Assembly (NCBI GenBank): GCA_040755995.1
Contig: JBFMAF010000043.1
Span: forward strand, 122,386-186,385
Direction of reading: 5' to 3'
Length of the DNA: 64,000 nt
From: Acidobacteriota bacterium
Lineage (GTDB): Bacteria; Acidobacteriota; CAIWXX01
Each line of letters opens with the position of its first letter. Position 1 is the stretch's first letter. Shown one piece after another: positions 12,937-30,420 of the stretch. The notes beneath the pieces are model-generated. The model was not told where the DNA came from. It ran no database searches and was given only the letters and a program-made list of their open reading frames with translations. The position numbers and the translations under genes are program-made.

Positions 12937-13605
12937 TCACCGGGAGCCGAGATGCTCGAACCACTGCATCCACCGGCGGAAGTGGGCGCATTCGCGCATC
13001 ATGGCATCGATTCCTACGGCGAGGGCAGCCACGTTTCCTCCCGTCACCTTGTCGTAGCCGGCGCAGACCGTCTTCAGGCGTTTCGAGGGGGCGGTTTCCT
13101 TGCCGTCATCAATGTGTTCGGGGGTCTCAGCAGACATGCGAATGGCGGCAAGCGAGGGTTCGAGGTCCGGACGGTAAAGGCCTTCTGCAAGACGCCCGGG
13201 GTCGCTGAACAGCAATCCCTCGAACTCGTGCATCGAGAGATAAGGGTAGAACCGTGATGCGTCGAAGTCCGTACCCATTGTCTCACGAACGTCAGCCGCG
13301 ACCGCTTCCTCGATTCTGGCGGCCTTGATCTCCGGTGAATTCCCCGATGGCGCGTTGTTCGACGGAAATGCGCCGAGCCCGTAGTAGTCGAAGAAACTCG
13401 TGCAGCAACAGTTGCGGTCGTGCTTGAGCGATCGCACGATATCCGGTCTTACGCGATCGTACTTGATGGCGCCTCCCCACGCCCGTCCAAAAACCTTGCC
13501 GGGGAGTATTGCAATGAGGTGAAGGCCCGGGAACCGCCCTTGAAGAACCTCACGGACGAAAGCCTGCTCGGTTGGGCCTTCGCATACGACGTGAACGCGG
13601 GTCAT
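12937..13605 (-). CDS. DUF4276 family protein (TOPRIM-like)
   Basis: VHVVCEGPTEQAFV, FFDYYG, MHEFEGLLFSD, PEHIDDG..APSKRL, CAHFRRW; ATGA overlap with the ATPase stop. Confidence 0.85.
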   Translation of the reverse strand: MTRVHVVCEGPTEQAFVREVLQGRFPGLHLIAILPGKVFGRAWGGAIKYDRVRPDIVRSLKHDRNCCCTSFFDYYGLGAFPSNNAPSGNSPEIKAARIEEAVAADVRETMGTDFDASRFYPYLSMHEFEGLLFSDPGRLAEGLYRPDLEPSLAAIRMSAETPEHIDDGKETAPSKRLKTVCAGYDKVTGGNVAALAVGIDAMMRECAHFRRWMQWFEHLGSR

Positions 13606-14726
13606 CGCCCGGGGCCTCCTTCGAGTACGTTCTTGCGCCACAGCTCACCGGTCGAGTATTCGTCGAGCCACGTCGCGTATTCCTTCTCAGACAGGCGTCT
13701 CATCGTGGTTTCTCTGCCCGGCCGGCTCAGCACCACAATGTCGTCAAGCGAGAACTCATCTACAAACGGCACCGATTGGGTGGCGACGATTACCTGACAA
13801 TGTGCCGAGACCTGACGAATGAGGGATGCGACCAGCATGATTGCCTGAGGATGCAGCCCAAGCTCGGGCTCATCCAGCATTAGAATAGCGGGGAGCGTCG
13901 ATTCCGGTTGACACAGGAGAGTCATCAGCGCGAGAAGTCTGAGCATTCCGTCCGATGCCTGTGATGCTGCGAACACCTCGTCACTCCCGCGCTCGCGCCA
14001 CTGCAGGATGACGTGGCCGTTCTCCGGGATCAGGACAAACTCGGCGAAGAACGGCAGAACCTGACGCACCGAATCCTGGATGCGTCTCAAGGCCAAGCGT
14101 TCCCCTGGTCCGCCGGCGTTCAAGCGTTCCAAGAAGGCGGCGATGTTGGAGCCGTCACGGTGAAGGTATTGGGCATCAGCGCGTGGGGACTTTCGTCGCA
14201 TCCCCGATGTAAACGACGTGTCGTGGAACTGGTAGGCAACGCACTTCCGCAATAGCGAGCGCACCGTGTGGGCTAGCTGGTCGGCGCCTGAGAATGCCCT
14301 CTCCATCAGTCGGGACTCGCGGTGACCTGCCACATGACCGCCGTCCTGCGGTTTGGTATACCCGTGCTTCAAGTATCCCCAGTTCTCATCGGTGAAGATC
14401 AGTGTGTCGTTGGCGGCGTACGATAGGCGAAACTCGTAGAAGTTCACGCCCTTGTCCGTCTGCAGTTCGATTCGGGCATGGATGCTCTCGGACACTTTTG
14501 GCCCGTCGTGCAACAGCCGACCGGCGCCCCCCGCCTCGGACACCGCGAGTTGCAGTTCTCCTCGCTCGGCCATGATCCGATAGAGAAGTGTGAAGAACGA
14601 AACCAGATTGGACTTGCCCGACCCGTTCCCGCCCACGAGCACGCTCAGCCGGCCCGGCTCGAAGCGTGGCAGATCCCGGTAAGTCTTGAACCCTCTTAAC
14701 GACAACGATTTCAACTCGACGCCCAT
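13602..14726 (-). CDS. ABC-type/AAA_21 ATPase
   Basis: Walker A GGNGSGKSN, signature SDGMLR, Walker B LDEPELGLHP, VATQS; SD AGGAGA. Confidence 0.9.
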   Translation of the reverse strand: MGVELKSLSLRGFKTYRDLPRFEPGRLSVLVGGNGSGKSNLVSFFTLLYRIMAERGELQLAVSEAGGAGRLLHDGPKVSESIHARIELQTDKGVNFYEFRLSYAANDTLIFTDENWGYLKHGYTKPQDGGHVAGHRESRLMERAFSGADQLAHTVRSLLRKCVAYQFHDTSFTSGMRRKSPRADAQYLHRDGSNIAAFLERLNAGGPGERLALRRIQDSVRQVLPFFAEFVLIPENGHVILQWRERGSDEVFAASQASDGMLRLLALMTLLCQPESTLPAILMLDEPELGLHPQAIMLVASLIRQVSAHCQVIVATQSVPFVDEFSLDDIVVLSRPGRETTMRRLSEKEYATWLDEYSTGELWRKNVLEGGPGR

Positions 14727-14928: not shown

Positions 14929-16200
14929 ATGTATGGCTGGAAACCACCGAAGAGGGCACTCGCAGCTGAAGAACGCCTGTCGAAGCTCATCGTGACGCCA
15001 CCGGGCCGTGTGGGTCGATCGGTGCGAGGCGCCGTGGATCGACAGGACGCCGTCGACCAGTCACGATCGGCTGGGCTGGATCCGGATCTGCTCGATAGAC
15101 ACGAAGCTCGAGTCACGCACACCCACCGCCGGATCAACGCGGTGGTAGTGGAGGTCTCCGAGCGAAAGCGAACGGCGCTCGAGCGCGCGCTGCGCAAACA
15201 GGGGTGCCAGGTGGAACGATCGGCGCCCGTCGCGCCCATGTTGGACCAGAGCATCCCGCAGATGTGCGTGGATGCAGCGTGGCAGCTCGGAGTGACAGGG
15301 AAGGACGTCTCCATTGGCGTTGCCGATACCGGTGTGGACGCCTCCCATCCGGATCTCAAAGACCGGCTGCTGGCCTACGAAGACTTCACGCAGACAGATC
15401 GCGTAGACGCTGTTGGGCACGGCACCCACGTGTGCGGGATCATCGCGGGCGCGGGCTCACACTACCGGGGCGTCGCACCCGCCGCCTCGCTGGTCGTGGC
15501 CAAGGTGCTGACCGAGAACGGAGGCGACACGGCCGGCGTGATCGCCGGCCTCTCCTGGCTCTCGCAGCAAGGGGTCCGCGCAATCAACGTCAGCCTGGGT
15601 GGCAGCGGCAACCCGAATGACGCGCTGAGCCGGGAGTGCGAGGCGCTCGTCGCAGACGGAATCGTCGTGTGCGTGGCCGCCGGCAACGAGGGACCTTCTT
15701 CTCACACAATCAGCTCACCGGGCTGCGCGCCTTCCGTGATCACGGTCGGCGCGGTCGACAAGAACGACACGCTGGCGCGCTATTCCTCACGAGGCCCGGT
15801 CAGGATCGGCCGCAAGACGATTGTGAAGCCGGACGTGGTGGCAGTCGGAGGGGGCGTTGCGTTTCGCGACCAGTGCCTCTATACGACCGGGATCGTATCT
15901 GCGAAGAGCCGCAAGATGGACAAGACGCCGTGCGACGTGGCATTCGGCCGATCCTCGCGCCGCTATGTTCGCATGAGCGGTACGTCGATGGCCACACCTC
16001 ACGTCACGGGTGTCGTCGCACTACTGATCGAATCGGCGCGCCAGCAGGGCACTCCGTGCGATCCCGCTGCGATCAGAGACATCCTTCGCGGAAGCTGCAA
16101 GAAGCTCAAGTACAGAGCGAACGAGCAGGGTGCAGGTCGCGTCGACGCCGCCTCCGCCGTCGATCTCACTCTCAAGCGAGCCGCCCCCGCCTGCGCGTAG
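14929..16200 (+). CDS. S8 subtilase serine protease, no evident signal peptide
   Basis: Catalytic triad motifs ADTG, HGTHVCG, SGTSMATP; oxyanion AAGNEG; SD GGAGGA. Confidence 0.92.
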   Translation: MYGWKPPKRALAAEERLSKLIVTPPGRVGRSVRGAVDRQDAVDQSRSAGLDPDLLDRHEARVTHTHRRINAVVVEVSERKRTALERALRKQGCQVERSAPVAPMLDQSIPQMCVDAAWQLGVTGKDVSIGVADTGVDASHPDLKDRLLAYEDFTQTDRVDAVGHGTHVCGIIAGAGSHYRGVAPAASLVVAKVLTENGGDTAGVIAGLSWLSQQGVRAINVSLGGSGNPNDALSRECEALVADGIVVCVAAGNEGPSSHTISSPGCAPSVITVGAVDKNDTLARYSSRGPVRIGRKTIVKPDVVAVGGGVAFRDQCLYTTGIVSAKSRKMDKTPCDVAFGRSSRRYVRMSGTSMATPHVTGVVALLIESARQQGTPCDPAAIRDILRGSCKKLKYRANEQGAGRVDAASAVDLTLKRAAPACA

Positions 16201-16992: not shown

Positions 16993-17021
16993 TTGACAAG
17001 AGCAGGTCCACCGCATATTCT
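16993..17021 (+). promoter_or_regulatory. Putative sigma70 promoter of the cytochrome cluster
   Basis: TTGACA(16993-98)-17 nt-TATTCT(17016-21). Confidence 0.55.
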
Positions 17022-17440: not shown

Positions 17441-18355
17441 ATGACGGTAACCAAGCAACGGCCCTTTCTGATGGCGCTGCTTTTCCTTGCGGCAGCGTGC
17501 CTCCTATGGGCGGCATTGCTGCAGGCCAGGGAGGGCGGCCCGCCTGAAGGCACTCCGTACGCGGGTTCCGAGAACTGCGCGGCGTGCCACGAAGATCTGG
17601 TCGTGAGCCTGAAGGCGACGCCGCACGGGCAGAAGGCGTTCGAGCTGCGGTCTGCCCAAGGCTGCGAAGCGTGCCACGGCCCGGGGACGGCTCACATCGA
17701 CAAGGAGGGCGACAAGTCGCTCATCCGAAGCTTCAAGACGATGCCGTCAGCCGAGGCATCGCAGACCTGCCTGCAGTGCCACGAGCGCGGAAGCCACGTG
17801 CTGTGGGTCGGCAGCACGCACGAGCAGCGGAACGTTGGATGCACCGAGTGTCATTCCGTGCACCATCCGGTCTCTGAGAAGAGCCAGCTCAAGGCTGCAC
17901 GGGAAGTGGCTCTCTGCTCCAAGTGCCACCCCAACATCCAGGCACAGACAATGCGGACGTCGCACCACCCGGTTCGCGAGGGGCTCATCACCTGCTCCGA
18001 CTGCCACAGCCCGCACGGCAGCGACGGCCCGAAGCTGATCGCGGCCGAAACCATCAACGAGAAGTGCTATCAGTGCCATGCGGAGAAGCGCGGGCCGTAC
18101 CTCTGGGACCACCCGCCCGTCCGCGAGAACTGCATGAATTGCCATACGCCTCACGGGTCGAATTTTGAGAAACTACTGAACGCGAAGCGGCCTTACCTCT
18201 GCCAGCGCTGTCATCTCGACACCAGGCACCCGGGCACTCTGTACGATGCGGCGAATCTTCCTACAAGTGACAGGATCCTCAACCGATCCTGCTCCGACTG
18301 CCACATGAACATCCATGGGTCGAACCATCCGTCCGGATGGACCTTCCTGCGATAG
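17441..18355 (+). CDS. mtrA: Decaheme c-type cytochrome, MtrA/PioA/DmsE family
   Basis: Signal peptide; 10 CxxCH motifs counted; EKRGPYLWDHPPVRENC and HGSNHPSG C-terminus. Confidence 0.93.
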   Translation: MTVTKQRPFLMALLFLAAACLLWAALLQAREGGPPEGTPYAGSENCAACHEDLVVSLKATPHGQKAFELRSAQGCEACHGPGTAHIDKEGDKSLIRSFKTMPSAEASQTCLQCHERGSHVLWVGSTHEQRNVGCTECHSVHHPVSEKSQLKAAREVALCSKCHPNIQAQTMRTSHHPVREGLITCSDCHSPHGSDGPKLIAAETINEKCYQCHAEKRGPYLWDHPPVRENCMNCHTPHGSNFEKLLNAKRPYLCQRCHLDTRHPGTLYDAANLPTSDRILNRSCSDCHMNIHGSNHPSGWTFLR

Positions 18356-18365
18356 GAGTGGGCAC

Positions 18366-20585
18366 ATGAACACGAGCACATTTTCAAGAATGATTCTCGC
18401 GCTGGTCGTGGCCGTTCTCGCACTGCCTGCTTTCGCGGAGGAAGAGGACGGTGTGGTCACCGACGTCTTCGTGGACTCGACAGTCGGGGTGAAAGATATC
18501 ACCGAAGATTCTTCCAAGGCCGAAGAGTATGGCGAAATCCCTGAAGGGTTCTACGTGCGGAAGCTTAGAGCCTCGTTCGGCTGGGAGAGCTCGGGCCGAA
18601 GTCTCGAGTTCACCGGGGACAACGTGGGCCTGAACTTCGGCCACTACACTCTCGACTACGGCAAGTCGGGCCTCTACAACCTCTCCGTGGACTATCGCAA
18701 GATCCCCCATCTCTTCTCGAAAGATGGGATCACCATGTGGAGCGAGCTGGAGCCCGGGCGGTGGCGCGTAGCGGACAGCATACAGAAGGCTATCCAGGAC
18801 CTGAATCCGTACGACCCGGCCGACCCGCTCTACGCAGGCGCTCTGCAGCGCCAGCGGGCGTTCATATCGAGCATGATCAACACGGGCCACGATCAGTCGC
18901 TGGAGCTCATGCGTGATCGAGGGTCGATTGGTCTCGACGTTACTCCGAGCGCTGCCTGGACGTACGGATTCGAGTATTTCAGGGAGAATCGCAAGGGCTA
19001 CCGGCCCCTCGGCACGGCCTTCGGCTTCAGCTGGGTGACGGAGCTGCCCGAGCACCTCGACAACAACACTCAGAACATGCGCGCCGATGTCCAGTATGCG
19101 AAGAATGGGACGACCTTGGAGGCTGCCTACAATGTGTCGCTCTTCCGGAACGATCTGGATAGCATAGTCTGGGACAATCCGTACAGATACGACGATCGCA
19201 CCTACTCGGCCGCCTATAGCAACGGTGACGGCACCTCCACTGGGCGCGCCGCGCTGCCGCCCGACAACGCAGCTCACACGCTCAGCTTCTCGGCCGGGAA
19301 GAAACTCGGGAGCCGGTCCAGACTCAACGGGTCGTTCTCGTACGGGATCTGGAAGGACGACGTGACGCTGCTCCCGTTCACGATCAACACGTCGATCGAG
19401 ACTCCCGATCTCCCAGCCTCCACCTTCAAGGGGGATCTCCGGAACATATCGGCCAATGTCAACTTCAACACGCGATTCGGCTCCGGCGGTTCCTTCACCG
19501 CGAAGTACCGGCTCTATGACCAGTCGAACAAGAGCTCGCAGTACACGTGGACGGAGTATGTCCGGTTCGACCAGGTCATCGAAGAGTTCCCGGAGGAAGA
19601 GGAAGGGGGATTCGAGAACGAGTTGCGCGCGTTCAGGACGCAGGACATCGACCTGGACGTCGGGTGGGAGCTGACCGACAGGCTGAACTTGCACGCGGCC
19701 TACAAGTTCAACCGTATGGGTCGCGAGCACCGCGACGTGGCGAAGGCGGACACCAACTCGTTCAAGACGAGCCTGGACGCCAAGGCCGCGGACTGGGCGA
19801 CAATCCGCTTCTCCTATGAGTACGCCAGGAGGCGGTTTGACGAGTATGAGCTCGAAGGCACGTACAAGGTGGTACATCTGTACCGCTTCGATGAGGCCAA
19901 TCTGAACAGGAACCTTGTCCGCCTGCTTGCCCAGCTTTCTCCCAATGAGAAGCTGAGTTTCGGGGCCGATGCCAGCTACGGAAACGACGACTATCTCGCC
20001 ACGGAATTCGGCCTGCAGAAGGCCGAACGCTTCAACGCCGGCGTCGACATGAGCTACAGCTTCGCCGAGAACGCTCTGCTCAACCTCTGGTATGACCACA
20101 CCGACATCGACATGGATCAGAAAGGCCGCCAGAGCGGGAGCACGCCGTCGACCGACCCGAGGAACGACTGGACAGCGGGCATATCCGACAAGTTCGACAC
20201 AGTCGGAGCTGGGTTTGTCACCGACTTGAAGAAGGACGTCGTCAAATGGGACATCAATCTGAGGTACGCGGCGGCTGATGGAAAAGTCGACCTGTTCAGC
20301 CCTCCAGGCGGCACGCCGGACGTTGCGAAAAGCATCCCGAACGCCGGGATCACAGACCTTCTCTCGGCCAAGACCAGCTTCGCGTTTGCTCTCTTCAAGA
20401 CCGCCAAGCTCGGCCTCGGCTATGGATTCGAGAAGTACACCATCGACGACTACCAGGAAAACCTCATCAGGGCCGACCTCCTGGCCAACGTGGGCACGGT
20501 CAGCCCGGGCATGACCACGCTGAATGCGATCCAGCCGGACTACCAGTATCAAATGGGCTGGGTCACATTGTCGTACCTGTGGTGA
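18366..20585 (+). CDS. mtrB: MtrB/PioB family outer-membrane beta-barrel
   Basis: Signal peptide, SSKAEEYG, ELPEHLD, WDNP, ALPPDNAAH motifs, aromatic C-terminus; directly after the decaheme gene. Confidence 0.9.
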   Translation: MNTSTFSRMILALVVAVLALPAFAEEEDGVVTDVFVDSTVGVKDITEDSSKAEEYGEIPEGFYVRKLRASFGWESSGRSLEFTGDNVGLNFGHYTLDYGKSGLYNLSVDYRKIPHLFSKDGITMWSELEPGRWRVADSIQKAIQDLNPYDPADPLYAGALQRQRAFISSMINTGHDQSLELMRDRGSIGLDVTPSAAWTYGFEYFRENRKGYRPLGTAFGFSWVTELPEHLDNNTQNMRADVQYAKNGTTLEAAYNVSLFRNDLDSIVWDNPYRYDDRTYSAAYSNGDGTSTGRAALPPDNAAHTLSFSAGKKLGSRSRLNGSFSYGIWKDDVTLLPFTINTSIETPDLPASTFKGDLRNISANVNFNTRFGSGGSFTAKYRLYDQSNKSSQYTWTEYVRFDQVIEEFPEEEEGGFENELRAFRTQDIDLDVGWELTDRLNLHAAYKFNRMGREHRDVAKADTNSFKTSLDAKAADWATIRFSYEYARRRFDEYELEGTYKVVHLYRFDEANLNRNLVRLLAQLSPNEKLSFGADASYGNDDYLATEFGLQKAERFNAGVDMSYSFAENALLNLWYDHTDIDMDQKGRQSGSTPSTDPRNDWTAGISDKFDTVGAGFVTDLKKDVVKWDINLRYAAADGKVDLFSPPGGTPDVAKSIPNAGITDLLSAKTSFAFALFKTAKLGLGYGFEKYTIDDYQENLIRADLLANVGTVSPGMTTLNAIQPDYQYQMGWVTLSYLW

Positions 20586-20638
20586 GAGCGAGGCGGCAGG
20601 CAGGTAGACATGGAAACAGTCCCGACGTGACCTCGTGA

Positions 20639-20687
20639 CCGGGGGCACGCAACGCAGGTCTGTCTTGGGCGTGCTGCGTGCTCCCGG
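20639..20687 (+). terminator. GC-rich stem-loop between mtrB and the cyc2-like gene
   Basis: CCGGGGGCACGCAACGC...GCGTGCTGCGTGCTCCCGG; no U-tract, so termination is uncertain. Confidence 0.4.
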
Positions 20688-20960
20688 CGCCGGGTATCTG
20701 GTGACGGGCAGCCTTGCCGGACAGCGAAAACAACAACGAATGGGGCTTGACATTGCTATGGACGACCGATATTTATCGTCGCCGGGCAGTAAGTGATGGA
20801 TCGCAGAGCATCGAGTTTGACGGCATTCTCTGTTCTCGTGAATTGCTCGTTGCGACGCTGTGCGACCGGACAATCTTGCGTTGAAGGGAAGCCTATTCTC
20901 GCCAGGATCACTGGGCAGTGGGCCTGGCTGTAAATAGCCGCAGAAATGGAGGGACTATTG

Positions 20961-22265
20961 ATGCGGTATCGACACTCACTCACGGTCGCAGCAGCGTTCG
21001 TTCTGCTCGGCCTCGCCGCGGATGCTTCGTGGGCGATCACAGCGTGGGCAAGGAGATATGACTTGCCGTGCAGCGCCTGCCACTGGGGCAGCGGATACCG
21101 GCTGACTCGCGAAGGACAGAAGTTCATGAGAACGGGACACTTCAATCCCGGCGACAAACCGTCGAAGAGCTTCGAGGACTACCTGGGTCTCAACACCAAG
21201 ATCCGCTTCAACGACGGGAACGACGCCAAGCTGACCGACAACAAGATCGGCGATGTCACGTTCGAGTACCACGCCTTTGCGCTGTACTCCGGCGGTCTCA
21301 TCGCTCCCAACTTCTCGTTCTTCACCGAGCTTTATCTGCACGAGCGAGAAGGAACTCCGAAGAAGGTAGACGTGTTCAGCGACGGAGGGCGCACGAAGCT
21401 TGCAGAGGCATTCCTGCAGTATACGCGTGGCGGCGCCAACTACTTCACGATTCGAGCAGGACAAATCGCGTCGCAGCTCTGGTACATCCAGGGGGCTGGT
21501 GGCCGCGTCGCCGAAACACGCAGCTACCTGGTCAACAACGCCACGATCACGACAAACGGAGGGATCGGCAACAAGTGGCTGCCCCGCCAGCGGGACTACG
21601 GCGTCGAGTTGGGTGGCCAGTACGGTGACCTGCATGCCGTGTTCGGGGTGATCAACGGCACGGGCAACTCGCCGACCAACGTGGTGGAGAACGCCGGGCA
21701 GGGGGCCAAGGACTTCTACACCAGCGCCGACTACACGTTGAAGGACATGGCCCAGTTCGGGATCTTTTACCACAACGGCAACCTCCAGGATCCGCTCGCC
21801 ACTGACACCACGTCCGAGGACAACAACGAGGACAACTTCTACCGAGTCGGGCTCACGTTCAACGCCAACCCAACCGACCGGCTCTGGGTAGTCGCGGACT
21901 ATGTGAACGGGAAGGACGAAGATTCCAAACCAAAGATCGGAACCCTGCCCGAGGTCAAGAGCAATGGGTTCAGCCTCGAAGGCGATTTTCTCGCACTCGA
22001 GGATCCGGGCATTGTCCCGTTCGTACGCTACGACCGCTTCACACACGACGGCAAGTCGACTCCGTCTGCCGACTTTGACACTACGACGGATGCCTTCGTG
22101 CTGGGGTGCAGCTTCAACCTCTTCGACCAGCAGCGAGGCAGACTCGTTTTCGAGTGGCAGTACCTGAAGACGACTGAAGAGTACAAGACGGTGACAGGGG
22201 AGAGTGCGAGCAAGGATCTGGTGAAAGACCAGAACCTCAGAATCGAGCTCTCCTTCATGCTGTAA
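20961..22265 (+). CDS. cyc2: Cyc2-like monoheme cytochrome c-porin fusion
   Basis: Signal peptide, then ITAWARRYDLP-CSACH-..L-TREGQKFMRTG resembling the Cyc2 N-terminal motif; remainder is amphipathic beta strands; ATG 20961 after GGAGGGA. Confidence 0.8.
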   Translation: MRYRHSLTVAAAFVLLGLAADASWAITAWARRYDLPCSACHWGSGYRLTREGQKFMRTGHFNPGDKPSKSFEDYLGLNTKIRFNDGNDAKLTDNKIGDVTFEYHAFALYSGGLIAPNFSFFTELYLHEREGTPKKVDVFSDGGRTKLAEAFLQYTRGGANYFTIRAGQIASQLWYIQGAGGRVAETRSYLVNNATITTNGGIGNKWLPRQRDYGVELGGQYGDLHAVFGVINGTGNSPTNVVENAGQGAKDFYTSADYTLKDMAQFGIFYHNGNLQDPLATDTTSEDNNEDNFYRVGLTFNANPTDRLWVVADYVNGKDEDSKPKIGTLPEVKSNGFSLEGDFLALEDPGIVPFVRYDRFTHDGKSTPSADFDTTTDAFVLGCSFNLFDQQRGRLVFEWQYLKTTEEYKTVTGESASKDLVKDQNLRIELSFML

Positions 22266-22280
22266 TCAGGTATCATAGGA

Positions 22281-22331
22281 TCGAGGCCGCCCGGGGAGAG
22301 TCACACGCTCCCCGGCGGCGCGGCCCCTCGA
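22281..22331 (+). terminator. Stem-loop after the cyc2-like gene
   Basis: GCCGCCCGGGGAG-loop-CTCCCCGGCGGC flanked by TCGAGG..CCTCGA. Confidence 0.45.
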
Positions 22332-22597
22332 TCGGCCGGCACAGGGGGAAATCGTTCAGGTTGAGGCAGAGAGGCAAGATTGAAAAGGCGGCACCGGGAC
22401 GTCCTCTAAGCTTGTTTCGCTGCTCCATCGGAGGCGCGGCTGGTGGCGTCTGCACGGCAATGAGAGGATTCTGCCGGCCGGATGGTGCGGCGGCGAGAAG
22501 GCCTCGGGCGATGATCTCCTTCCCTGGGAGTGCCTCTGCTCGCGACAGGAGAACCGGGTGCGATGTCCGCGCTGAGTGACCTCGCACGCGGGCGACG

Positions 22598-25168
22598 ATG
22601 AGGTCGGCGCGAGCCGCGAGCATTGTCGCTGGGCTGCAGCTATTCTTGCCGATGGCCGTCGCAGCAGTTGACGCTTCCCGGTCCGAAATCGAGGCGTGCC
22701 TGATCTGTCATTCTGACAGCGGATTGACCAGGGCCGGCGGCGAGAAGCTTCTCGTACCGGACGCGCTCGCGACCAGCGTTCACGCGGCGCTCTCCTGCGT
22801 CGACTGCCATGCCGAAGGGAATTTCGACGACGTGCCGCACGCGCCGAAGTACACGCCGGTTGACTGCGCCGGCTGCCACGCGGAGGTGGCGGAGCAGTGG
22901 AGCGGAAGCGTACACGGCAGGGGCCCGCCCGCCAAGCGGATCGGCTGCGTTCAATGCCACGAGTCCGGAGACGATCCGCACGATGTGAGGCCCGCGGCTG
23001 GATTGGACCCGGCTCGGGTCTGCGTGAGGTGTCACCCGGAGGAGACTCAGCGCTTCGCATCCGGCGGGCATGCAAAGGCGATCTCGGCCATGTCGCCGCC
23101 GGGCTGCGCCGGGTGCCATCGCCCTCACGCTGAAGCGAGCCTCTCGAATGCGGGCTCCACGCGGGTCTGTGAGCCGTGCCACGCGTCGGCTGCCGAGAAG
23201 CTCCGAGGCGGGCCGCACGGCCTCAAGGAGGCCATTCCGCAGCGGACAAAGGATGCCCCGAAGGAGCAGGTCGGGTGCTCGAGCTGCCACGAGCCCCACG
23301 CTATGCCGGATCCTGTGCGATCGTCCGATGCGTTCTCGCAATGCGTATCATGCCACAGGAAGTCCGTTGTCGATTTCGCCGGCTCGGTGCACGAAGCGAG
23401 GCTGCGGGGCGGCGAGATGACGTGCGCAAGCTGCCATTCGATCCACCTCGAGCCCGGGCAGGTGGCGTTCCACTGCGGCGACTGCCACGAGAAGGCCAAC
23501 GAGGAATATCGTCAGAGCGCGCACTTCAAGCAGAATCCGACCGGGCTGGGCGCCGCAGCGAATTGCGGCGACTGCCACAACCGTGGCCACCAGGTGCGCA
23601 GCGCCGGCGATCCGCAGGCCATGACGCACTTCGCAAACCAGCCCAAGATGTGCGGGAAGTGCCATGGCGAGAGCCTCGTAGTCGCTCCGAACTACGTGCG
23701 GCTTCCGATGACGCTTTCCAACTACCGGAAGTCGGTGCACTACGAGAGGCTGCTGGAGTGGGAGCAAGACCCGTCCAAACCTCGGGGAGCAGTCTGCACT
23801 GATTGCCACGAATCGCACCTGGTGCGTTCGGCCGGCGATACCGCTAGCGTGTCCAACCGCATGAGAGTCGCGGACACCTGCGGCAAGTGTCACCCGAAGC
23901 AGTCCAGGGACTATCAGACGTCGGTCCACGGGGCGGCTCTCGCCCATGGGCTGACCGATACGCCGGCGTGCCCCGACTGTCACGACTCCCACATGATCCT
24001 CTCGCAGTATGATCCCTTGTCGAGGACATTCGAGCCGAGCGTTTCCGCTGACTGCGGGCAGTGCCACGAAAGCCGCTCCCTGACCGACCGTTTCGGGATC
24101 TGGCCTGGCGTCGTCAAGTCGTACCGCGACAGCTACCATGGGTGGGCGATAGGCAAGCAGACCACGGTGGCCAACTGCACCGACTGCCACACTACCCACA
24201 GGATTCGCAGCCATCTCGATCCCACATCCACTACATACCCGAAAAACGTGGTGCGAACCTGCGGCCGCTGCCACGAGAACTCCAACGAGGAGTTCGCCAC
24301 GAGCTACACGCACGCCTCTTTCGGCCAGATCTGGGGGGTTCACGACGTTGTGCGAGTTGTATACATAGTCCTCATAATCGCCGTCTTGACCGGGATGGTC
24401 GCGCACAACACGCTTATCTTGAGCCACACGATCCGGAAACACTACCTGAGCCACCTCGAAGAAGAGCATGTGCTCAGGATGAACCGCACCGAGGTCTTGC
24501 AGCACATCCTGCTGATCGTCACGTTCACCGGTCTGGCGGTGACCGGCTTCGCTCTCAGGTTTCCGGAATCATGGTGGGTGAGAGCATTGCGCTGGGCCGG
24601 CATGGACGAAGGTGTGCGTGCCGCTTCGCATCGCGTCTTCGCGGCGCTCCTTGTGGCCGGCACAGTCTGGCACGCGCTCTGGATGGTGCTCAGCCGGCGC
24701 GGGCGGGCCAAACTCGCAGCCTACCTGCCCGCGTGGCAGGATGTCGCCAGCGCACGCGAGACCGTCAGATATTACTTCGGGATGCGCGATGAGAAGCCCG
24801 GCTTCGGCGTCTACGACTACACGCAGAAGGCCGAGTACTGGGCGCTCGTCTGGGGGACCATCGTGATGGGCCTGACCGGCTTCGTCCTCTGGTTTCCGTC
24901 CTTGATGACCTCATGGTCGCCGGGGTGGACCGTGCGCGTCTCAGAGGTCGTCCATTACTACGAGGCCATTCTGGCCGTGGGCGCGATCCTCGTGTGGCAT
25001 TTCTTCTTCGTCATCTACCATCCGAAGGTCTACCCCGTTTCTCTCACGTTCGTGACCGGCCGGATGCCGTTGCACGAGTGGAAGGAGGATCACTCGCTCG
25101 CCGATCCGCTTCCGGACGGGGATCACGAAGGAGCGTCAGGCGGAGAGACCCGCGGTCGCGATCAGTAG
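22598..25168 (+). CDS. Multiheme cytochrome c (19 CxxCH) fused to a membrane b-type cytochrome, CbcL-like
   Basis: 19 CxxCH counted; C-terminal TM domain with LQHILL, ASHRVF, QKAEYWALVWG, VVHYYEA, VWHFFF (FdnI/CbcL-type heme-b His pattern). Confidence 0.88.
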   Translation: MRSARAASIVAGLQLFLPMAVAAVDASRSEIEACLICHSDSGLTRAGGEKLLVPDALATSVHAALSCVDCHAEGNFDDVPHAPKYTPVDCAGCHAEVAEQWSGSVHGRGPPAKRIGCVQCHESGDDPHDVRPAAGLDPARVCVRCHPEETQRFASGGHAKAISAMSPPGCAGCHRPHAEASLSNAGSTRVCEPCHASAAEKLRGGPHGLKEAIPQRTKDAPKEQVGCSSCHEPHAMPDPVRSSDAFSQCVSCHRKSVVDFAGSVHEARLRGGEMTCASCHSIHLEPGQVAFHCGDCHEKANEEYRQSAHFKQNPTGLGAAANCGDCHNRGHQVRSAGDPQAMTHFANQPKMCGKCHGESLVVAPNYVRLPMTLSNYRKSVHYERLLEWEQDPSKPRGAVCTDCHESHLVRSAGDTASVSNRMRVADTCGKCHPKQSRDYQTSVHGAALAHGLTDTPACPDCHDSHMILSQYDPLSRTFEPSVSADCGQCHESRSLTDRFGIWPGVVKSYRDSYHGWAIGKQTTVANCTDCHTTHRIRSHLDPTSTTYPKNVVRTCGRCHENSNEEFATSYTHASFGQIWGVHDVVRVVYIVLIIAVLTGMVAHNTLILSHTIRKHYLSHLEEEHVLRMNRTEVLQHILLIVTFTGLAVTGFALRFPESWWVRALRWAGMDEGVRAASHRVFAALLVAGTVWHALWMVLSRRGRAKLAAYLPAWQDVASARETVRYYFGMRDEKPGFGVYDYTQKAEYWALVWGTIVMGLTGFVLWFPSLMTSWSPGWTVRVSEVVHYYEAILAVGAILVWHFFFVIYHPKVYPVSLTFVTGRMPLHEWKEDHSLADPLPDGDHEGASGGETRGRDQ

Positions 25169-25845
25169 CCGCTCGATCGCCGTCGCGGCCGCCTGCGCTT
25201 GGGGAGGACGAGAATCAGCGCCACTCCGGCCACGAAGCCGGCTGCGTGCGCCATGAACGCGATACCGCCGCCCGGTCCAGCCACGGCGCTCAGAATCTGC
25301 ACGAAGAACCAGATGCCGAGCACGAAGAAGGCGGGCACCGGCACGATCTGGAAAAAGAAGGGGAACGGAAGCAACGTGTGCACGCGGGCACTGGGATAGA
25401 GCACCAGGTAGGCGCCGAGAACCCCGGCGATCGCGCCGCTGGCTCCTACCATCGGGATGCGTGAGTTCAGATTGAACAGAATGTGGCCGGCTGCCGCCGC
25501 CATGCCACAGAGCAGATAGAAGACGACGAAGGAGAAGTGCCCGAGGGCGTCCTCGACGTTGTTGCCGAAGATCCAGAGGTAGAGCATGTTGCCGGCCAGG
25601 TGCAGGAAGCCGGCGTGCATGAACATCGCCGTGAGGACCGTGAGCGGGATCGGAACCGGCGAGAACGGCCGGATGTCGGTCAGGTGCACCAGCTCCCATG
25701 GAATCGCCCCCAGGCTCATGACATAGTAGTCGAGACTGCGAGGGGAGAAGGCCTGGTAGAAGAACACCAGCACGTTCACCACGATGAAGGTCACCGTGAA
25801 GATCGGCGGCCGCGTGGTGGGATTGTCGTCGTAGAGCGGAATCAT
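25162..25845 (-). CDS. Rhomboid intramembrane serine protease
   Basis: HAGFLHLAGNMLYLWIFG, GASGA, AHAAGF. Confidence 0.93.
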   Translation of the reverse strand: MIPLYDDNPTTRPPIFTVTFIVVNVLVFFYQAFSPRSLDYYVMSLGAIPWELVHLTDIRPFSPVPIPLTVLTAMFMHAGFLHLAGNMLYLWIFGNNVEDALGHFSFVVFYLLCGMAAAAGHILFNLNSRIPMVGASGAIAGVLGAYLVLYPSARVHTLLPFPFFFQIVPVPAFFVLGIWFFVQILSAVAGPGGGIAFMAHAAGFVAGVALILVLPKRRRPRRRSSGY

Positions 25846-26632: not shown

Positions 26633-27946
26633 CTACCGCTCCACCGTCAGCTCGGCGATAGTGTCCGGGCTCTCACTCTTTACTACAGTTGTAGTAGCGC
26701 CGTCCTTGACGATGCGAATCCGAACGGCGTCAGTGTCCCGGCCGTCCAGCATCGCGCCGTGGGCTGCGAGGTTGCCGCCGCAGCGCATCCGCCAGGCGTC
26801 GCAGAATTCGGCGGCGTCGGCGGTCCTGTCCCAGGCCTGTTTCCAGACGAGCGTGCGCCGCCCGCTCGAGTCGCGATACATCTGGTAGAAATCGCCGTCC
26901 CAGCCGGCAGAGGCGACTCCATCCTGGTCGGCGGGGAACAGAGACCGCATGTAGAACTCGCCCAGCACGCCCTCGAACACCAGCGTCTGCCCGGGCAACC
27001 GGCTCGACAAATTGAAGTGCACGTCCTGCGGGTCGTCGCGCCCGAAGTACTTGTCCGGATGCAGCAGCTGCTCGCTGGTGGCCGGGGGCCGGGCGAGCAC
27101 CCGGTTGACCTCAGACTGGCCGCCGCGGTTGTAGGCCGCCTCGATGAATCTGTCGCCCTCGATGTAGGGCAGCAGCAGCTGCCGCTGGATCACCTCGGGG
27201 GCGGCGGCATACCTGCCGCCCGTGAGGGTGGCTGCCGACTGGATCATCGCGCCCAGATCCAGCGGAATGCCGCCCAGCAGCTCGCCCACATCGTCACCAA
27301 GCTCCGTATTCTGCGCTCCGAGGGAATCGACGCCTGCGAACCGGAGCATGACGAAAGTAGCGTCGCCCTCGTAGGCGCCGAGCGCCGCGAGGCGACGGTC
27401 GTCGAAGTCGCTGAGGTCGGGCAGCTTGTGCTCCAGGTCGAAATGCTGGTCCTGGATGGCGTGGCGGATCTCGTGCGACAGGATGAAGGCGTTGAGGAAG
27501 TCTAGCTGCGATGAGCTGCTGACAGCGTACAGCGATTTCGAAGGACTCCTTTCGTCATAGAATCCGGCGACGTTCTCGTACAGCAGCTGGGCCCGCTCGG
27601 CCCGCAGGTCGTAGTCTGCGGGGATGAGTCCCAGGAACTTCAGCAGCTCCGATTCGCCCACCGCCTCGGAGGCCGGGTACTCGTCGTCGAACACCTGTTC
27701 GAGATACTGCTTGAGCTGCTCCTTGGTCATGAAGCGGATCTGGAGAGGCCGTATGAGCTTCAGGCCGCCGATTTCTTCGACGCGGGCTTTGAGCGCGTCC
27801 TCCGTCATAGTCTCCTGGACGCCCAGCATGTCGAGGAGCCCGCGGATCTGTTCTTCCGCCGTCTCCTCCTGCGCGTTCAGGACGATCATGCCGAGACACA
27901 CAACCGCCAAAGCGGCTCCGATCGCGCTCGCAAACGCTCTTCTCAC
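26633..27946 (-). CDS. Exported putative zinc metallopeptidase (HExxH + downstream E)
   Basis: Signal peptide; AGFYD, HEIRHAIQDQHF, EGDA, PATSEQLLHPDKY, GWDGD; GTG 27946 supported by promoter position. Confidence 0.75.
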   Translation of the reverse strand: MRRAFASAIGAALAVVCLGMIVLNAQEETAEEQIRGLLDMLGVQETMTEDALKARVEEIGGLKLIRPLQIRFMTKEQLKQYLEQVFDDEYPASEAVGESELLKFLGLIPADYDLRAERAQLLYENVAGFYDERSPSKSLYAVSSSSQLDFLNAFILSHEIRHAIQDQHFDLEHKLPDLSDFDDRRLAALGAYEGDATFVMLRFAGVDSLGAQNTELGDDVGELLGGIPLDLGAMIQSAATLTGGRYAAAPEVIQRQLLLPYIEGDRFIEAAYNRGGQSEVNRVLARPPATSEQLLHPDKYFGRDDPQDVHFNLSSRLPGQTLVFEGVLGEFYMRSLFPADQDGVASAGWDGDFYQMYRDSSGRRTLVWKQAWDRTADAAEFCDAWRMRCGGNLAAHGAMLDGRDTDAVRIRIVKDGATTTVVKSESPDTIAELTVER

Positions 27947-27952
27947 GCGCTG

Positions 27953-27981
27953 ATTATAGGGGCGCGTCGAGGGGTTGTCAA
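27953..27981 (-). promoter_or_regulatory. Consensus sigma70 promoter, leaderless transcript
   Basis: TTGACA-17 nt-TATAAT on the minus strand, 6 nt before GTG 27946. Confidence 0.85.
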
Positions 27982-28127
27982 AAACGCCGTTGGAATCGGG
28001 TGGGAAACCAATTCGGGGGGCGGCCGATCGCGCGACTCGCAGCCAAGCCCCTTCCCGCACCCGCCTGCGGTTTCGCTTCGGGTACGCGAGCGGGTGCGGG
28101 GACGGGGACCGGTACGGTCGGATTTGG

Positions 28128-29540
28128 CTACCTGAACCGATAGATGGTCCGCACGTAGAAGGTGCGGTAGTCGTTCCCCTCGCCTCGAGCCTGCTGCAGC
28201 TCAGCTATCAACGTCAGTGCGCCTGCGAGCCTGTACGAAAGAGACGCTCCGATGATCTGGTAGCCGGGAACGGGCGTCAACTGCAGGCTGGTACCGATTT
28301 CGGTGATCACGATAGCGTCGCCGTAGTTGGAGTAGTCGACCTCGGCTGTGAAGTCGCCGATGGATCGCGCACAGGACAGGTATACGACTCCACGCCCTGC
28401 CGAGGCTTCGAGCGAACGCGCGTAGGAGCCGTTGATGTCGAAGCCGGCGAGCTCCACTCCTGAGATCCCGATTCTCACCTGGCGCGTCAGTTGATCGCTC
28501 TGGCTCCTCTTGAAGACGCTCATTCCGCCGTAGACCCTCATGCTCCGGTACAGACGATACCGGACGTCAAACATGAAGTTCTGGTAGTAGTAGTTGCCGA
28601 TCACGTACGGATCCGTGATCAAGCCGCCGTCGGAAGCCGCGATCAGGAGTCTTCTATAGTCGATCGAGCGCCCAAAGCTGAATGAGCCGGAGAACGACAG
28701 GTCCTTGTTCACGGCGACTCCTCCTGAGGCCAGGAAGCGCGAGAGCCGGTTCGCGCCGGGGATGCCCGGGCCGAGCTCGTACTCCAGGCTCTGGTACAGC
28801 GAGGTCCCGGGCCTGGCGTAGATGAAGTTCTGCACCGAGAGGAATCGTCGTTCCGTCTTTCCGCGGAGGAGGACCTCGGTGAGAGCCACATCGGATCTCG
28901 ATCCCCCCGCCGACTGGAGAGTCACGTAGCCGCCCGCCGTGACTGTGTCCGAGGAGAAGGCCGCCGTGTAGAAGTCCGGGACGACCCCGCCGTATCCGCC
29001 CAAGGAGAGGGATCCGTGACGGTAGCCGGCGCGGACGCCGTCGATGGTTCCTATACTACCGACGTCGTAAATTGACATCCGTCCCGCAGACACCTCGTAT
29101 GAAGTGGCGCGGTACGTGGCCTTCGCGTCGTAGATGAAGAGGGTCGAAGGGTGATTCCCGGCGACGTAGTGACGGTTGCGGAGATTCAGGTCGAAGGACC
29201 ACCCCGACTGGCCCTTCGGGCGGAAGGTGGTCGTGATCTGGTAGCCGAGGGTTGTCACCGGGTCCTGACCCGGTACGGCCAGTGCATAGGCATCCGTCGA
29301 GAACCAACCCGTGAGCGCCGGGGTTGGGCGCGCGGCCGGCAACTCCTGTCCGCCCGCGGCGCACGAACCTGCCAGCAGCGCAGCCCCGATCGCTGCCAGC
29401 ACGGAATTCACAACGAACCGGTCGTAGAGGCGGTGGGGAGCTCCTCCAGGCGACCCGGCTGCCGTACTGCTCGCCTGTCCTCGGTTTGCGGTTGAACGTG
29501 CCGGCGGCCGTACCACCAGCCGTCTACCGATGCGCTTCAT
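28128..29540 (-). CDS. Putative outer-membrane beta-barrel protein
   Basis: Hydrophobic signal-like stretch, then alternating Tyr/Gly/Ser-rich strands ending RTIYRFR; ATG 29540 after GGGAGG; true start may lie further downstream. Confidence 0.65.
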   Translation of the reverse strand: MKRIGRRLVVRPPARSTANRGQASSTAAGSPGGAPHRLYDRFVVNSVLAAIGAALLAGSCAAGGQELPAARPTPALTGWFSTDAYALAVPGQDPVTTLGYQITTTFRPKGQSGWSFDLNLRNRHYVAGNHPSTLFIYDAKATYRATSYEVSAGRMSIYDVGSIGTIDGVRAGYRHGSLSLGGYGGVVPDFYTAAFSSDTVTAGGYVTLQSAGGSRSDVALTEVLLRGKTERRFLSVQNFIYARPGTSLYQSLEYELGPGIPGANRLSRFLASGGVAVNKDLSFSGSFSFGRSIDYRRLLIAASDGGLITDPYVIGNYYYQNFMFDVRYRLYRSMRVYGGMSVFKRSQSDQLTRQVRIGISGVELAGFDINGSYARSLEASAGRGVVYLSCARSIGDFTAEVDYSNYGDAIVITEIGTSLQLTPVPGYQIIGASLSYRLAGALTLIAELQQARGEGNDYRTFYVRTIYRFR

Positions 29541-30071
29541 CGTGCTTGCCTCCCTTCGGTCACCTGCGGTACCAGTCAGATAACCGGCATAGAATGCCTG
29601 CCATGTGAACCGAACCCCGGCGACCACACCGCGACTCGCAGCTCCAGGGGAAAGTCGCGTCCGCGGGCGCCCGTCGGACAGCGCGCCCACCAGCACGCTC
29701 AGTTCGTCACGACGGCACCACGTGCGATCGGCTGAGCCACTTTCATCATGAATCCCGGCGCGTTGATACTCGCAGTGCTCGAATCCGTTCTGCCCACGCG
29801 AAATTACCCGCGGCACTCGAAGCTTGTCAACACGATTTCCAGTAGGGATTGGCAGCGTGTGATCTACGTCACACGCTCCGGTGCCGCGGTCTTGGTCGCA
29901 AGCTCTGGCGCGATGCGTCATCGCCACACTCAGCGGGGGCGCAGGAAGTGACGCAGAGACGCGGCGAGGGGTGCAGTCACGTTCCACGCGTCTCGCGCCA
30001 CACCATTGAGATTCCGGTGCCGACCCGCTATGCTCATTGTGGTTATGGACATCATGCGAAAGGTCCGTGAG

Positions 30072-30242
30072 ATGCATACACAGGATTGGATATTGCTGGG
30101 GGTCCTCGCACTCTATCTTGTCTTGCAGTTCTACGTGTTTCCGAAGCTCGGCGTACCCACCTGAGGGTCCCGGGTATGCAAGACCGAGGATCGGTCGAAA
30201 TCCGGCACGACACTGAAGCTCTTCGACGACGAGAAGCACTGA
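30072..30242 (+). CDS. Small membrane protein, candidate selenoprotein (in-frame TGA at codon 31)
   Basis: MHTQDWILLGVLALYLVLQFYVFPKLGVPT-U-GSRVCKTEDRSKSGTTLKLFDDEKH; SD-like GAAAGG; hairpin downstream of the TGA. Confidence 0.6.
30182..30196 (+). promoter_or_regulatory. Putative bacterial SECIS hairpin
   Basis: GACCGA-GGA-TCGGTC; stem starts after 17 nt and G-led loop after 23 nt downstream of TGA 30162-64. Confidence 0.5.
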
Positions 30243-30311
30243 GCCGCCTCCCCTAGCGTCTGCCCCCTTGGCGGCTGCGCAGCGGATCGGACTGCGCACC
30301 TTCGCAGGCGG

Positions 30312-30347
30312 AACTGCCAACTGACAACCGACAACTGCCAACTGCCA
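30312..30347. repeat. Heptamer tandem repeat (AACTGMC family, reverse orientation)
   Basis: AACTGCC AACTGAC AACCGAC AACTGCC AACTGCC. Confidence 0.8.
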
Positions 30348-30420
30348 TCGACTTGAAGCCTCCTCTGCACTGGGCATAGAATGGGCGCCTTCGCCCCGAG
30401 GGCGCAGTATGGAGGGAGAC

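Follow-up and report, generated by a model that had tools for sequence, protein, structure and literature searches.

A Cyc2-like cytochrome-porin gene between mtrAB and a 19-heme CbcL-family gene in an Acidobacteriota genome

The stretch of DNA analyzed here, called the window, comprises 64,000 nucleotides (nt) of an Acidobacteriota assembly (G000), and positions in it are those of the whole stretch. Between 17,441 and 25,168 it holds four genes on the + strand, which would encode a trans-envelope electron conduit. The first (17441..18355) encodes an MtrA/MtoA-type decaheme periplasmic cytochrome of 304 amino acids (aa), with an N-terminal hydrophobic leader and 10 CxxCH heme motifs, and is followed by the gene for an MtrB/PioB-type outer-membrane barrel of 739 aa with none (18366..20585). 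The third encodes a Cyc2-like fused monoheme cytochrome-porin with a signal-like leader and one CxxCH; it ends at 22265 and starts at 20946 (439 aa) or, likelier, at 20961 (434 aa), where a GGAGG-like site precedes the start. The fourth (22598..25168) encodes an inner-membrane cytochrome of the CbcL/MtoC/MtrH family, of 856 aa, with a leader and 19 CxxCH. The co-oriented open reading frames (ORFs) and the 30 motifs (10 + 0 + 1 + 19) reported by a first-pass annotation of this DNA were confirmed. No other ORF of at least 120 aa in the window carries a CxxCH, and shuffling (2000 trials each) yielded at most two motifs per protein, with means of 0.10, 0.11 and 0.0. Genome studies have already described the core of this arrangement, MtrAB together with a CbcL homolog, which makes the surprise moderate; the Cyc2-like gene inside it is the new part.

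Whereas 10 nt separate the mtrA stop from the mtrB start, the Cyc2-like gene is set off by longer gaps. The gap on its mtrB side (20586..20960, 375 nt counted to start 20961) contains a TTGACA hexamer and has room for a separate promoter, yet no promoter or terminator was scored in it; the fold of its first 141 nt is unremarkable (z = -1.96), and comparison with the upstream regions of orthologs gave no clear common motif. In the gap before cbcL (22266..22597, 332 nt) a GC hairpin without a U-tract follows the stop codon and is no stabler than shuffled sequences (z = -0.64 for the gap). A sigma-70-like site lies on the + strand about 420 nt upstream of mtrA (16993..17021), and both scans were at chance level, with 1 promoter found versus 1.4 expected and 6 terminators versus 4.7. 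Recent horizontal transfer was considered and leaves no compositional sign, because the G+C content at third codon positions of the four genes (0.80-0.82) is close to the genome median (0.807, from 1788 long ORFs).

The MtrA product scores 261.1 bits with TIGR03508 (cut-off 192.2) and has the ten motifs of the MtrA/MtoA/PioA/DmsE decahemes, and the adjoining MtrB scores 308 with TIGR03509 (cut-off 240.05) and 350.8 with PF11854 (cut-off 23). The first-pass annotation had noted the absence of MtrC/OmcA from the window; none was found there, nor over the cut-off genome-wide, the best TIGR03507 score being 26 bits versus 209.3. A Shewanella-type MtrCAB was consequently rejected, there being no mtrC or omcA clustered with mtrAB, and so was DmsEFAB, as all five PF00384 matches lie on other contigs and the DmsA-like one scores 446 versus 777.7. 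The features of MtoABCD that are present are mtoA, mtoB and a CbcL-family mtoC in one cluster without mtrC. The locus differs from MtoABCD in having no small monoheme shuttle gene of the MtoD kind, its sole monoheme ORF being the 434-aa porin, and in the position of the latter between mtrB and cbcL.

The 856-aa protein is assigned from its sequence to the CbcL/MtoC/MtrH family, with an FdnI/HydC-like di-heme b core. Residues 628-811 match the cytochrome b family PF01292 (56.6 bits, cut-off 30.1), the membrane part aligns with FdnI (1kqf_C, E 1.6e-12), and the 19 CxxCH fall in residues 34-559. Among 99 aligned sequences, His636, His678, His786 and His801 are invariant and align with His18, His57, His155 and His169 of FdnI, which we take to bind its two b hemes. 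An FdnI-like segment before helix III is conserved as well; in FdnI the quinone site faces the cytoplasm. The alignment also contains 15 invariant and 4 nearly invariant periplasmic histidines outside the motifs, one per heme, which would fit bis-histidine ligation of the 19 c-hemes as in Geobacter CbcL. The AlphaFold2 model (mean predicted local distance difference test, pLDDT, of 82) has five membrane-length helices (581-608, 630-654, 671-698, 741-765 and 777-807), and the roughly six helices expected of CbcL are reached, in our reading of the model, by counting the leader helix as the sixth. The heme count is ordinary, because exactly 19 motifs are present in 98 of the 120 best CbcL matches (40-62% identity, several phyla).

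CbcL/MtoC/MtrH homologs with 3-23 hemes are described from 15 phyla (PMC6295460). The CbcL of Geobacter sulfurreducens resembles the window protein in its N-terminal multiheme arm, in histidines sufficient for bis-histidine ligation and in the HydC/FdnI-like di-heme b domain (PMC9129911, PMC6295460). Its bis-histidine hemes have an apparent potential of -194 mV (PMC9129911), and this CbcL, the sole one tested, exports electrons and reduces PpcA (PMC9129911, PMC12307469). It has 9 c-hemes and the window protein 19, the two being compared by description and not by alignment, and it works with PpcA and porin-cytochromes, whereas the window gene adjoins mtrAB instead. The host has a second 19-heme CbcL-type gene (G000:C35:59574-62543), 27% identical to the window copy, which lies beside gap-pgk-tpi without mtrAB.

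Neither Pfam nor NCBIfam gave a match to the monoheme protein at E<=0.01, and a sequence search of the PDB returned no chain at E<=10. Its AlphaFold2 model, built on a 12-sequence alignment (predicted template modelling score 0.72; mean pLDDT 70.4, about 60 around the heme motif), has a short helical N-terminus followed by 16 strands, so that 20961..22265 does model as a barrel with one N-terminal heme motif. The nearest solved folds are Omp32 and OmpT (Z 22.7) and OprP (2o4v; Z 22.4, root-mean-square deviation 3.9, 307 residues aligned); MtrB (6r2q_B) reaches Z 11.4, and no solved Cyc2 is among the fold matches. With this model, the TIGR03508 and TIGR03509 scores and the PF01292/FdnI match, the four gene labels of the first-pass annotation stand.

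Cyc2 is described as a protein of at least 365-400 aa with a signal peptide, one CxxCH and a 16-stranded OprO/OprP-like barrel, and with the motifs AxPxFAR[QK][TY] upstream and PxL downstream of the CxxCH (PMC8406198). The window protein has the architecture, namely a hydrophobic leader (judged by eye), a CxxCH near residue 37 and 434 aa, and departs from the strict motifs: W-A-R-R-Y stands where Cyc2 has P-x-F-A-R-[QK]-[TY], with T for P, W for F and R for Q/K, and Y-R-L stands for PxL, the spacing being unchanged. Compared with Cyc2/Cyt572 (PMC8406198) it thus shares the signal peptide, the single N-terminal CxxCH behind an aromatic-Ala-Arg motif at equal spacing and a barrel of 16 strands whose nearest structures are OprP-type and general porins. 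It differs in the loss of proline from both motifs, in the change of Phe to Trp, in the invariant His59 and His103 of its close subfamily and in a host without sign of iron oxidation. The two histidines, conserved in all 12 close homologs, are candidate heme ligands.

The profile family of the protein contains 1824 representatives at E<=0.001. One N-terminal CxxCH is present in 129 of 132 full-length matches, of which 28 carry the strict motif and 75 PxL, and no protein named Cyc2 is among the broad-profile matches. A profile made from the barrels alone of the 28 strict-motif members, themselves recovered with the profile of the window protein, scored the barrel of the window protein at 156 bits (E 7e-44); MtrB received no score. 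Seven profile matches, a host paralog included, have no Pfam match. The 434-aa protein is filed as Cyc2-like and not as Cyc2, because the strict motif fails; judged by build and profile it is probably a divergent Cyc2 relative. Prediction of a complex between the CbcL arm (27-575) and the Cyc2-like protein scored 0.00 versus a mark of 0.32 and was counted neither way. Two further host barrels match the Cyc2-like profile (G000:C8:196946-198280 and C32:33788-35119); one has a single CxxCH (80 bits), and the other, heme-less and adjoining pstS, is likely a phosphate porin.

Gene order was compared in two genomes of the same family (G001 and G002), in 401 genomes of the phylum and at 85 cyc2-like loci (51 from genomes, 34 from metagenomes). 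Synteny in relatives, which the first-pass annotation had proposed as a test, fails in close kin. The G001 orthologs occupy three neighbourhoods, and no contig end interrupts these at the relevant junctions. In that genome mtrA (66%) and mtrB (55%) form a unit of two genes with opposite-strand genes after it, a two-component system precedes the cyc2-like ortholog (68%) on a second contig, and a third contig has the best CbcL match (31%), within another cytochrome cluster. No mtrB match was found in G002. The window cbcL converges on a rhomboid protease gene (25162..25845, - strand, PF01694) that lies outside the conduit, and the slot beside the rhomboid gene holds CbcL-type genes in all three family genomes, directly converging in G000 and G001 and 3.7 kb apart in G002; mtrAB and the cyc2-like gene are there only in the window. 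A stand-alone cyc2-like gene (L011, G028:C6) and a rhomboid gene with 53% identity to that of the window are divergently oriented, which is probably coincidence.

In the phylum, mtrB was found in 82 of 401 genomes (96 places), and of the 95 that lie outside the window the 62 with the highest scores were taken as mtrB stretches, 47 of them with at least 2 kb downstream and 38 with at least 5 kb on both sides. No cyc2-like gene lies within about 9 kb of mtrB in these 62 stretches, two weak broad-profile matches (19-22 bits), one of which is MtrB itself, having been set aside. A CbcL-type cytochrome b is present in 8 of them and missing from 54. The closest cyc2-like orthologs (65-68% identity) adjoin a two-component system or unrelated genes, the metagenome ortholog L131 (65%) stands alone with 10 kb of flank on each side, and neither mtrA nor mtrB was found in the 34 metagenome loci, many of them short. 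At E<=1e-8 a broad profile gave 344 cyc2-like matches, many of them weak, spread over 208 of 401 genomes. At four loci (L199, L201, L205 and L206, from G304, G116 and, twice, G001) a cyc2-like gene stands directly upstream of a GltD-like Fe-S flavoprotein gene and/or a cytochrome b and 8-heme cluster, without mtrAB.

The pairing of cyc2-like genes with mtrAB recurs at a distance, in Elusimicrobiota, in Firestoneibacteriota and in one other Acidobacteriota cluster. Among the 51 genome loci, two of which repeat stretches already sampled, five have mtrB within 10 kb (four Elusimicrobiota, one Firestoneibacteriota); the 48 genomes behind these loci include 17 with an mtrB match, one weak. Two Elusimicrobiota genomes have the cyc2-like gene, mtrAB and cbcL together at one locus. 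At that of G402, cytochrome c maturation genes are followed by monoheme, cyc2-like, mtrA, mtrB and a 9-heme cbcL, whose frame spans two contigs overlapping by 28 identical bases; at that of G401, cbcL diverges from monoheme-mtrA-mtrB-cyc2-like-triheme, and the stretch spans two contigs that overlap by 106 bases. No CbcL match was found in G403 or G404, and the two cbcL genes of G405 lie on another contig. At the four Elusimicrobiota loci there are also genes for small cytochromes with one to three hemes, which could be shuttles. When the best 150 listed broad-profile places in the phylum were compared with those of mtrB, three further pairs, each on one contig, emerged. Only the pair of G152 belongs to one continuous, co-oriented cluster; its cyc2-like gene stands upstream of mtrB by 14 kb, and the cluster has other inner-membrane modules and no CbcL. 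This G152 stretch (C186:4689-23900, about 20 kb, co-oriented) comprises cyc2-like, 4- and 5-heme genes, subunits resembling alternative complex III (ACIII) or Qrc, cytochrome b, 11-, 4- and 6-heme genes, mtrA, mtrB and an 8-heme gene. Another Elusimicrobiota locus (L203, G419:C168) has a tandem duplication of hemA-like, mtrA and mtrB, then a 9-heme cbcL and a multiheme gene.

Two trees were drawn by quick IQ-TREE runs, unrooted and without bootstrap or clade test. In the Cyc2-like tree (64 rows) the six mtrAB-adjacent proteins fall in three separately supported clades within one 19-row group, and none of the 45 members of the large Opitutae/Holophagaceae clade is mtrAB-adjacent. In the MtrA tree (59 rows, loci with cut, split or over-long MtrA having been dropped) the MtrA of the window falls among MtrA proteins of its own phylum without a cyc2-like neighbour, away from those of Elusimicrobiota. 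The mtrAB label was not more clustered on the two trees than in shuffles (500/500 and 147/500). Because the gene orders differ and the branches are separate, repeated recruitment appears the simpler reading of the pairing, although it may instead be one ancient linkage with many losses.

Comparison with known systems places the core close to published clusters. The gene mtoC accompanies mtoABD in Dechloromonas aromatica RCB as well as in Gallionella capsiferriformans ES-2, and a CbcL homolog (mtrH/mtoC) lies beside mtrAB in Rhodoferax ferrireducens and seven further species (PMC6295460, PMC5566968). The MtoABCD clusters of ES-2 and RCB and the mtrABC-mtrH cluster of R. ferrireducens share with the window a decaheme and barrel beside a CbcL-family c/b cytochrome, the Mto clusters also the absence of MtrC; MtoC of ES-2 has 9 hemes, the window protein 19 (PMC6295460, PMC5566968). 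Their hosts differ, the Mto host being a betaproteobacterial Fe(II) oxidizer and that of the window an Acidobacteriota bacterium with sulfate-reduction and Wood-Ljungdahl genes. In Sideroxydans/Gallionellaceae, Cyc2 and MtoAB occur in one cell, in 37% of iron-oxidizer genomes, as separately regulated pathways that the available text does not place in one locus, whereas in the window the genes are adjacent (PMC10734462, PMC13741234). The uncultured subsurface bacterium RBG-1 (Zixibacteria) likewise has MtrC-less mtrAB with an inner-membrane quinone module; its order is MtrA-MtrB-multiheme-PetAB, hence PetAB and not CbcL, and no Cyc2-like gene is mentioned in the part consulted (PMC3903129). The mtrCAB group of Acidobacteriia is described without a quinone oxidoreductase nearby (PMC8805035). 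In the literature searched (including PMC12133095, PMC10654088, PMC13390432, PMC12442390 and PMC7399161, in part) no account of cyc2 lying within an mtrAB-cbcL locus was found, and supplementary cluster figures or Cyc2 alignments could alter this novelty. The first-pass annotation had not known the combination from characterized organisms; that holds for the cyc2-like insertion and not for mtrAB with a CbcL homolog, which is the published MtoABC layout.

The host assembly (7.7 Mb, 99.8% complete) contains 26 ORFs with at least two CxxCH. Over their cut-offs are DsrA, DsrB, AprB, QmoC, Sat, DsrM/K/J/P and HmcA, carbon monoxide dehydrogenase and acetyl-CoA synthase (CODH and ACS, Wood-Ljungdahl pathway), clade II NosZ and CoxB of an aa3 oxidase, with an ACIII-like cluster beside; an uptake-type NiFe hydrogenase is also present. 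Neither DsrE nor RuBisCO was found over the cut-off in the genome, which has only a RuBisCO-like protein. By this gene content the host is probably a respirer using many acceptors. A complete-looking cluster of dsrL-like, dsrAB, dsrN, dsrC, aprBA, qmoABC and sat lies on G000:C34, and a CODH/ACS cluster on G000:C39, in the same genome as the aa3 oxidase and NosZ. A small outer-membrane barrel gene (PF13505) is followed, two genes downstream, by an ORF of 1473 aa with a leader and 60 CxxCH (G000:C32:52374-56795) that has no family match beyond a weak HmcA stretch. On G000:C27:19315-38352 six multiheme genes (9, 5, 5, 10, 4 and 12 motifs) occur with NHL-repeat and peptidyl-prolyl isomerase genes and a 683-aa protein without assigned family; this cluster may be a second, Geobacter-like porin-cytochrome conduit.

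Other genes flank the locus in the window. Just upstream are a P-loop ATPase-like ORF (12937-14726, - strand), followed by an ORF which we take to be DUF4276-like, and an S8 subtilase (14929-16200, + strand). Further downstream, both on the - strand, lie an Hvo_1808-like surface protein (26633-28060; 135 bits, below the cut-off of 200) and, upstream of it, an ORF without family match whose C-terminal part resembles an outer-membrane barrel (28128-30422).

The reading preferred here, with a rough probability of 0.45, is that MtrAB and the 19-heme CbcL form one MtoABC-type conduit running outward from menaquinol, and that the Cyc2-like porin is a separately recruited second surface contact. Quinol would be oxidized at the FdnI-like b-heme domain of CbcL, and electrons would run along the bis-histidine c-heme arm across the periplasm, the long arm itself or a small cytochrome encoded elsewhere passing them to MtrA inside MtrB. 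Given the absence of MtrC, the acceptor would be dissolved Fe(III), a humic quinone, or a directly touched surface or electrode-like acceptor. The Cyc2-like porin would be a second contact of the same respiratory toolkit, presumably with its own regulation, since its gene is set off by the 375- and 332-nt gaps. The recurrence of mtrAB with a CbcL-type gene in 8 of the 62 same-phylum stretches favours this arrangement, as do the published MtrAB-CbcL layout, the electron export by the one CbcL tested and the range of respiratory acceptors indicated by the host genes. The Cyc2-like gene was likely added separately, because its close orthologs stand elsewhere, the trees branch apart and the rhomboid slot of the kin is without it.

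Several points weigh against an outward, CbcL-fed conduit. Direction is unreadable from sequence, because MtoA and MtrA do not separate on trees (PMC10734462) and CbcL and MtoC have no distinguishing feature (PMC6295460). The CODH/ACS genes and the uptake-type hydrogenase of the host fit electron uptake, and a quinone site on the cytoplasmic side, as in FdnI, conserves energy inward, not outward. MtrAB needs no adjacent CbcL, as 54 of 62 mtrB stretches and the two-gene unit of G001 are without it, and the second 19-heme CbcL or 25 other multiheme ORFs of the host could be its partner. As to menaquinone itself, no futalosine genes (MqnA/C/D/E) and no MenB over the cut-off were found in the host assembly, despite its Qmo, DsrMK, ACIII-like and two CbcL genes, and MenA just exceeds its own cut-off (106 versus 102). 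A tblastn comparison of the futalosine cluster of G001 gave no match in the host for any of its seven genes, the neighbouring genes matching there at 53-79%; this suggests that menaquinone is salvaged or that the pathway genes lie in an assembly gap.

The main rival reading, which we consider unlikely, is that the same parts are wired inward. MtrAB would collect electrons from FeS, Fe(0), reduced humics or a partner cell, and the 19-heme arm would deliver them to the FdnI-like domain, which would reduce menaquinone on the cytoplasmic side and build proton-motive force, with Qmo and DsrMK feeding sulfate reduction and the Wood-Ljungdahl pathway fixing carbon. The genome-wide absence of MtrC, as in MtoABCD and PioAB, agrees with it, as do the four FdnI-matching histidines with the conserved segment before helix III, the host set of Sat, Apr, Qmo, DsrAB, DsrMK, HmcA and CODH/ACS, and the lack of DsrE expected of a reductive Dsr; the comparable MtrC-less cluster of RBG-1 has been read as oxidative (PMC3903129). 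However, quinone reduction by a CbcL homolog was not found in the portions of the literature consulted, and the host has no RuBisCO over the cut-off. Strong donors would be needed, because Fe(II) at pH 7 (0 +/- 100 mV, PMC8406198) is too weak for a -194 mV wire.

Less probable still is a reading along the lines of the first-pass proposal, with the four genes as a single operon whose MtrAB and Cyc2-like porin would be two alternative conduits through the outer membrane, both docking on the 19-heme arm of the one CbcL in a shuttle-free, possibly bidirectional system. The genes are co-oriented without a scored terminator in the gaps, no small shuttle gene is at the locus, and the same four gene types share a locus in G401 and G402; moreover, 5 of the 17 cyc2-like genomes with mtrB have it within 10 kb, far above random placement in 2-8 Mb, although four of the five are kin. 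Against this, the arrangement is not syntenic in either same-family genome, the pairing is absent from the 62 same-phylum stretches and the 34 metagenome loci, and the order differs at every recurrence; G401 has a divergent cbcL, in G405 cbcL is on a separate contig, possible shuttles are encoded at the four Elusimicrobiota loci, and the 375- and 332-nt gaps remain. The potentials bear on it as well. Mariprofundus Cyc2 has a potential of +208 mV (PMC8406198), and by analogy the window protein could accept electrons from, and hardly donate them to, a -194 mV CbcL-type wire, uptake being steeply uphill (PMC8406198, PMC9129911). A shared CbcL module would hence imply export, or an unusually low heme potential of the Cyc2-like protein; otherwise the latter may feed an ACIII-aa3 or NosZ branch and merely share the address.

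An equally doubtful alternative, that three independent units were joined by rearrangement as accidental or loosely selected neighbours (MtrAB served by Hmc, the second CbcL or cytochrome bc-like clusters, CbcL serving periplasmic partners, and the Cyc2-like porin feeding ACIII-aa3 or NosZ as an Fe(II) oxidase or having another role), agrees with the three neighbourhoods of G001, the abundance of cyc2-like matches in the phylum, the four inspected genes beside cytochrome b or multiheme clusters and the ACIII-like, aa3 and NosZ genes of the host, but the mtrAB pairing, which each tree shows on three or more separate branches, and the 8 of 62 stretches with mtrAB and a CbcL-type gene point to selection for linkage.

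The outward reading, with its separately recruited porin, can be carried a step further, to a speculation that we hold improbable: the W-A-R Cyc2-like subfamily would comprise low-potential export conduits fed directly by the 19-heme CbcL arm, giving a sulfate-reducing member of the Acidobacteriota a shuttle-free two-exit wire from menaquinol to the cell surface, and the four-part module would have arisen at least two independent times, in the window and in Elusimicrobiota. If true, this would be the first Cyc2 with a reductive role, and the use of cyc2 as a marker of iron oxidation outside cluster 1 would be undermined. Matches to cyc2 and mtoA are widely used to call uncultured bacteria iron oxidizers, and the present host, with complete-looking sulfate-reduction and Wood-Ljungdahl sets and no MtrC, yet has a Cyc2 relative between MtrAB and CbcL; the cyc2-like/mtrAB pairing, moreover, occurs on separate branches in three phyla. 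The four genes would thus provide a test set for the role of divergent Cyc2 homologs in bacteria that do not oxidize iron, and for the long CbcL arm as a substitute for a periplasmic shuttle.

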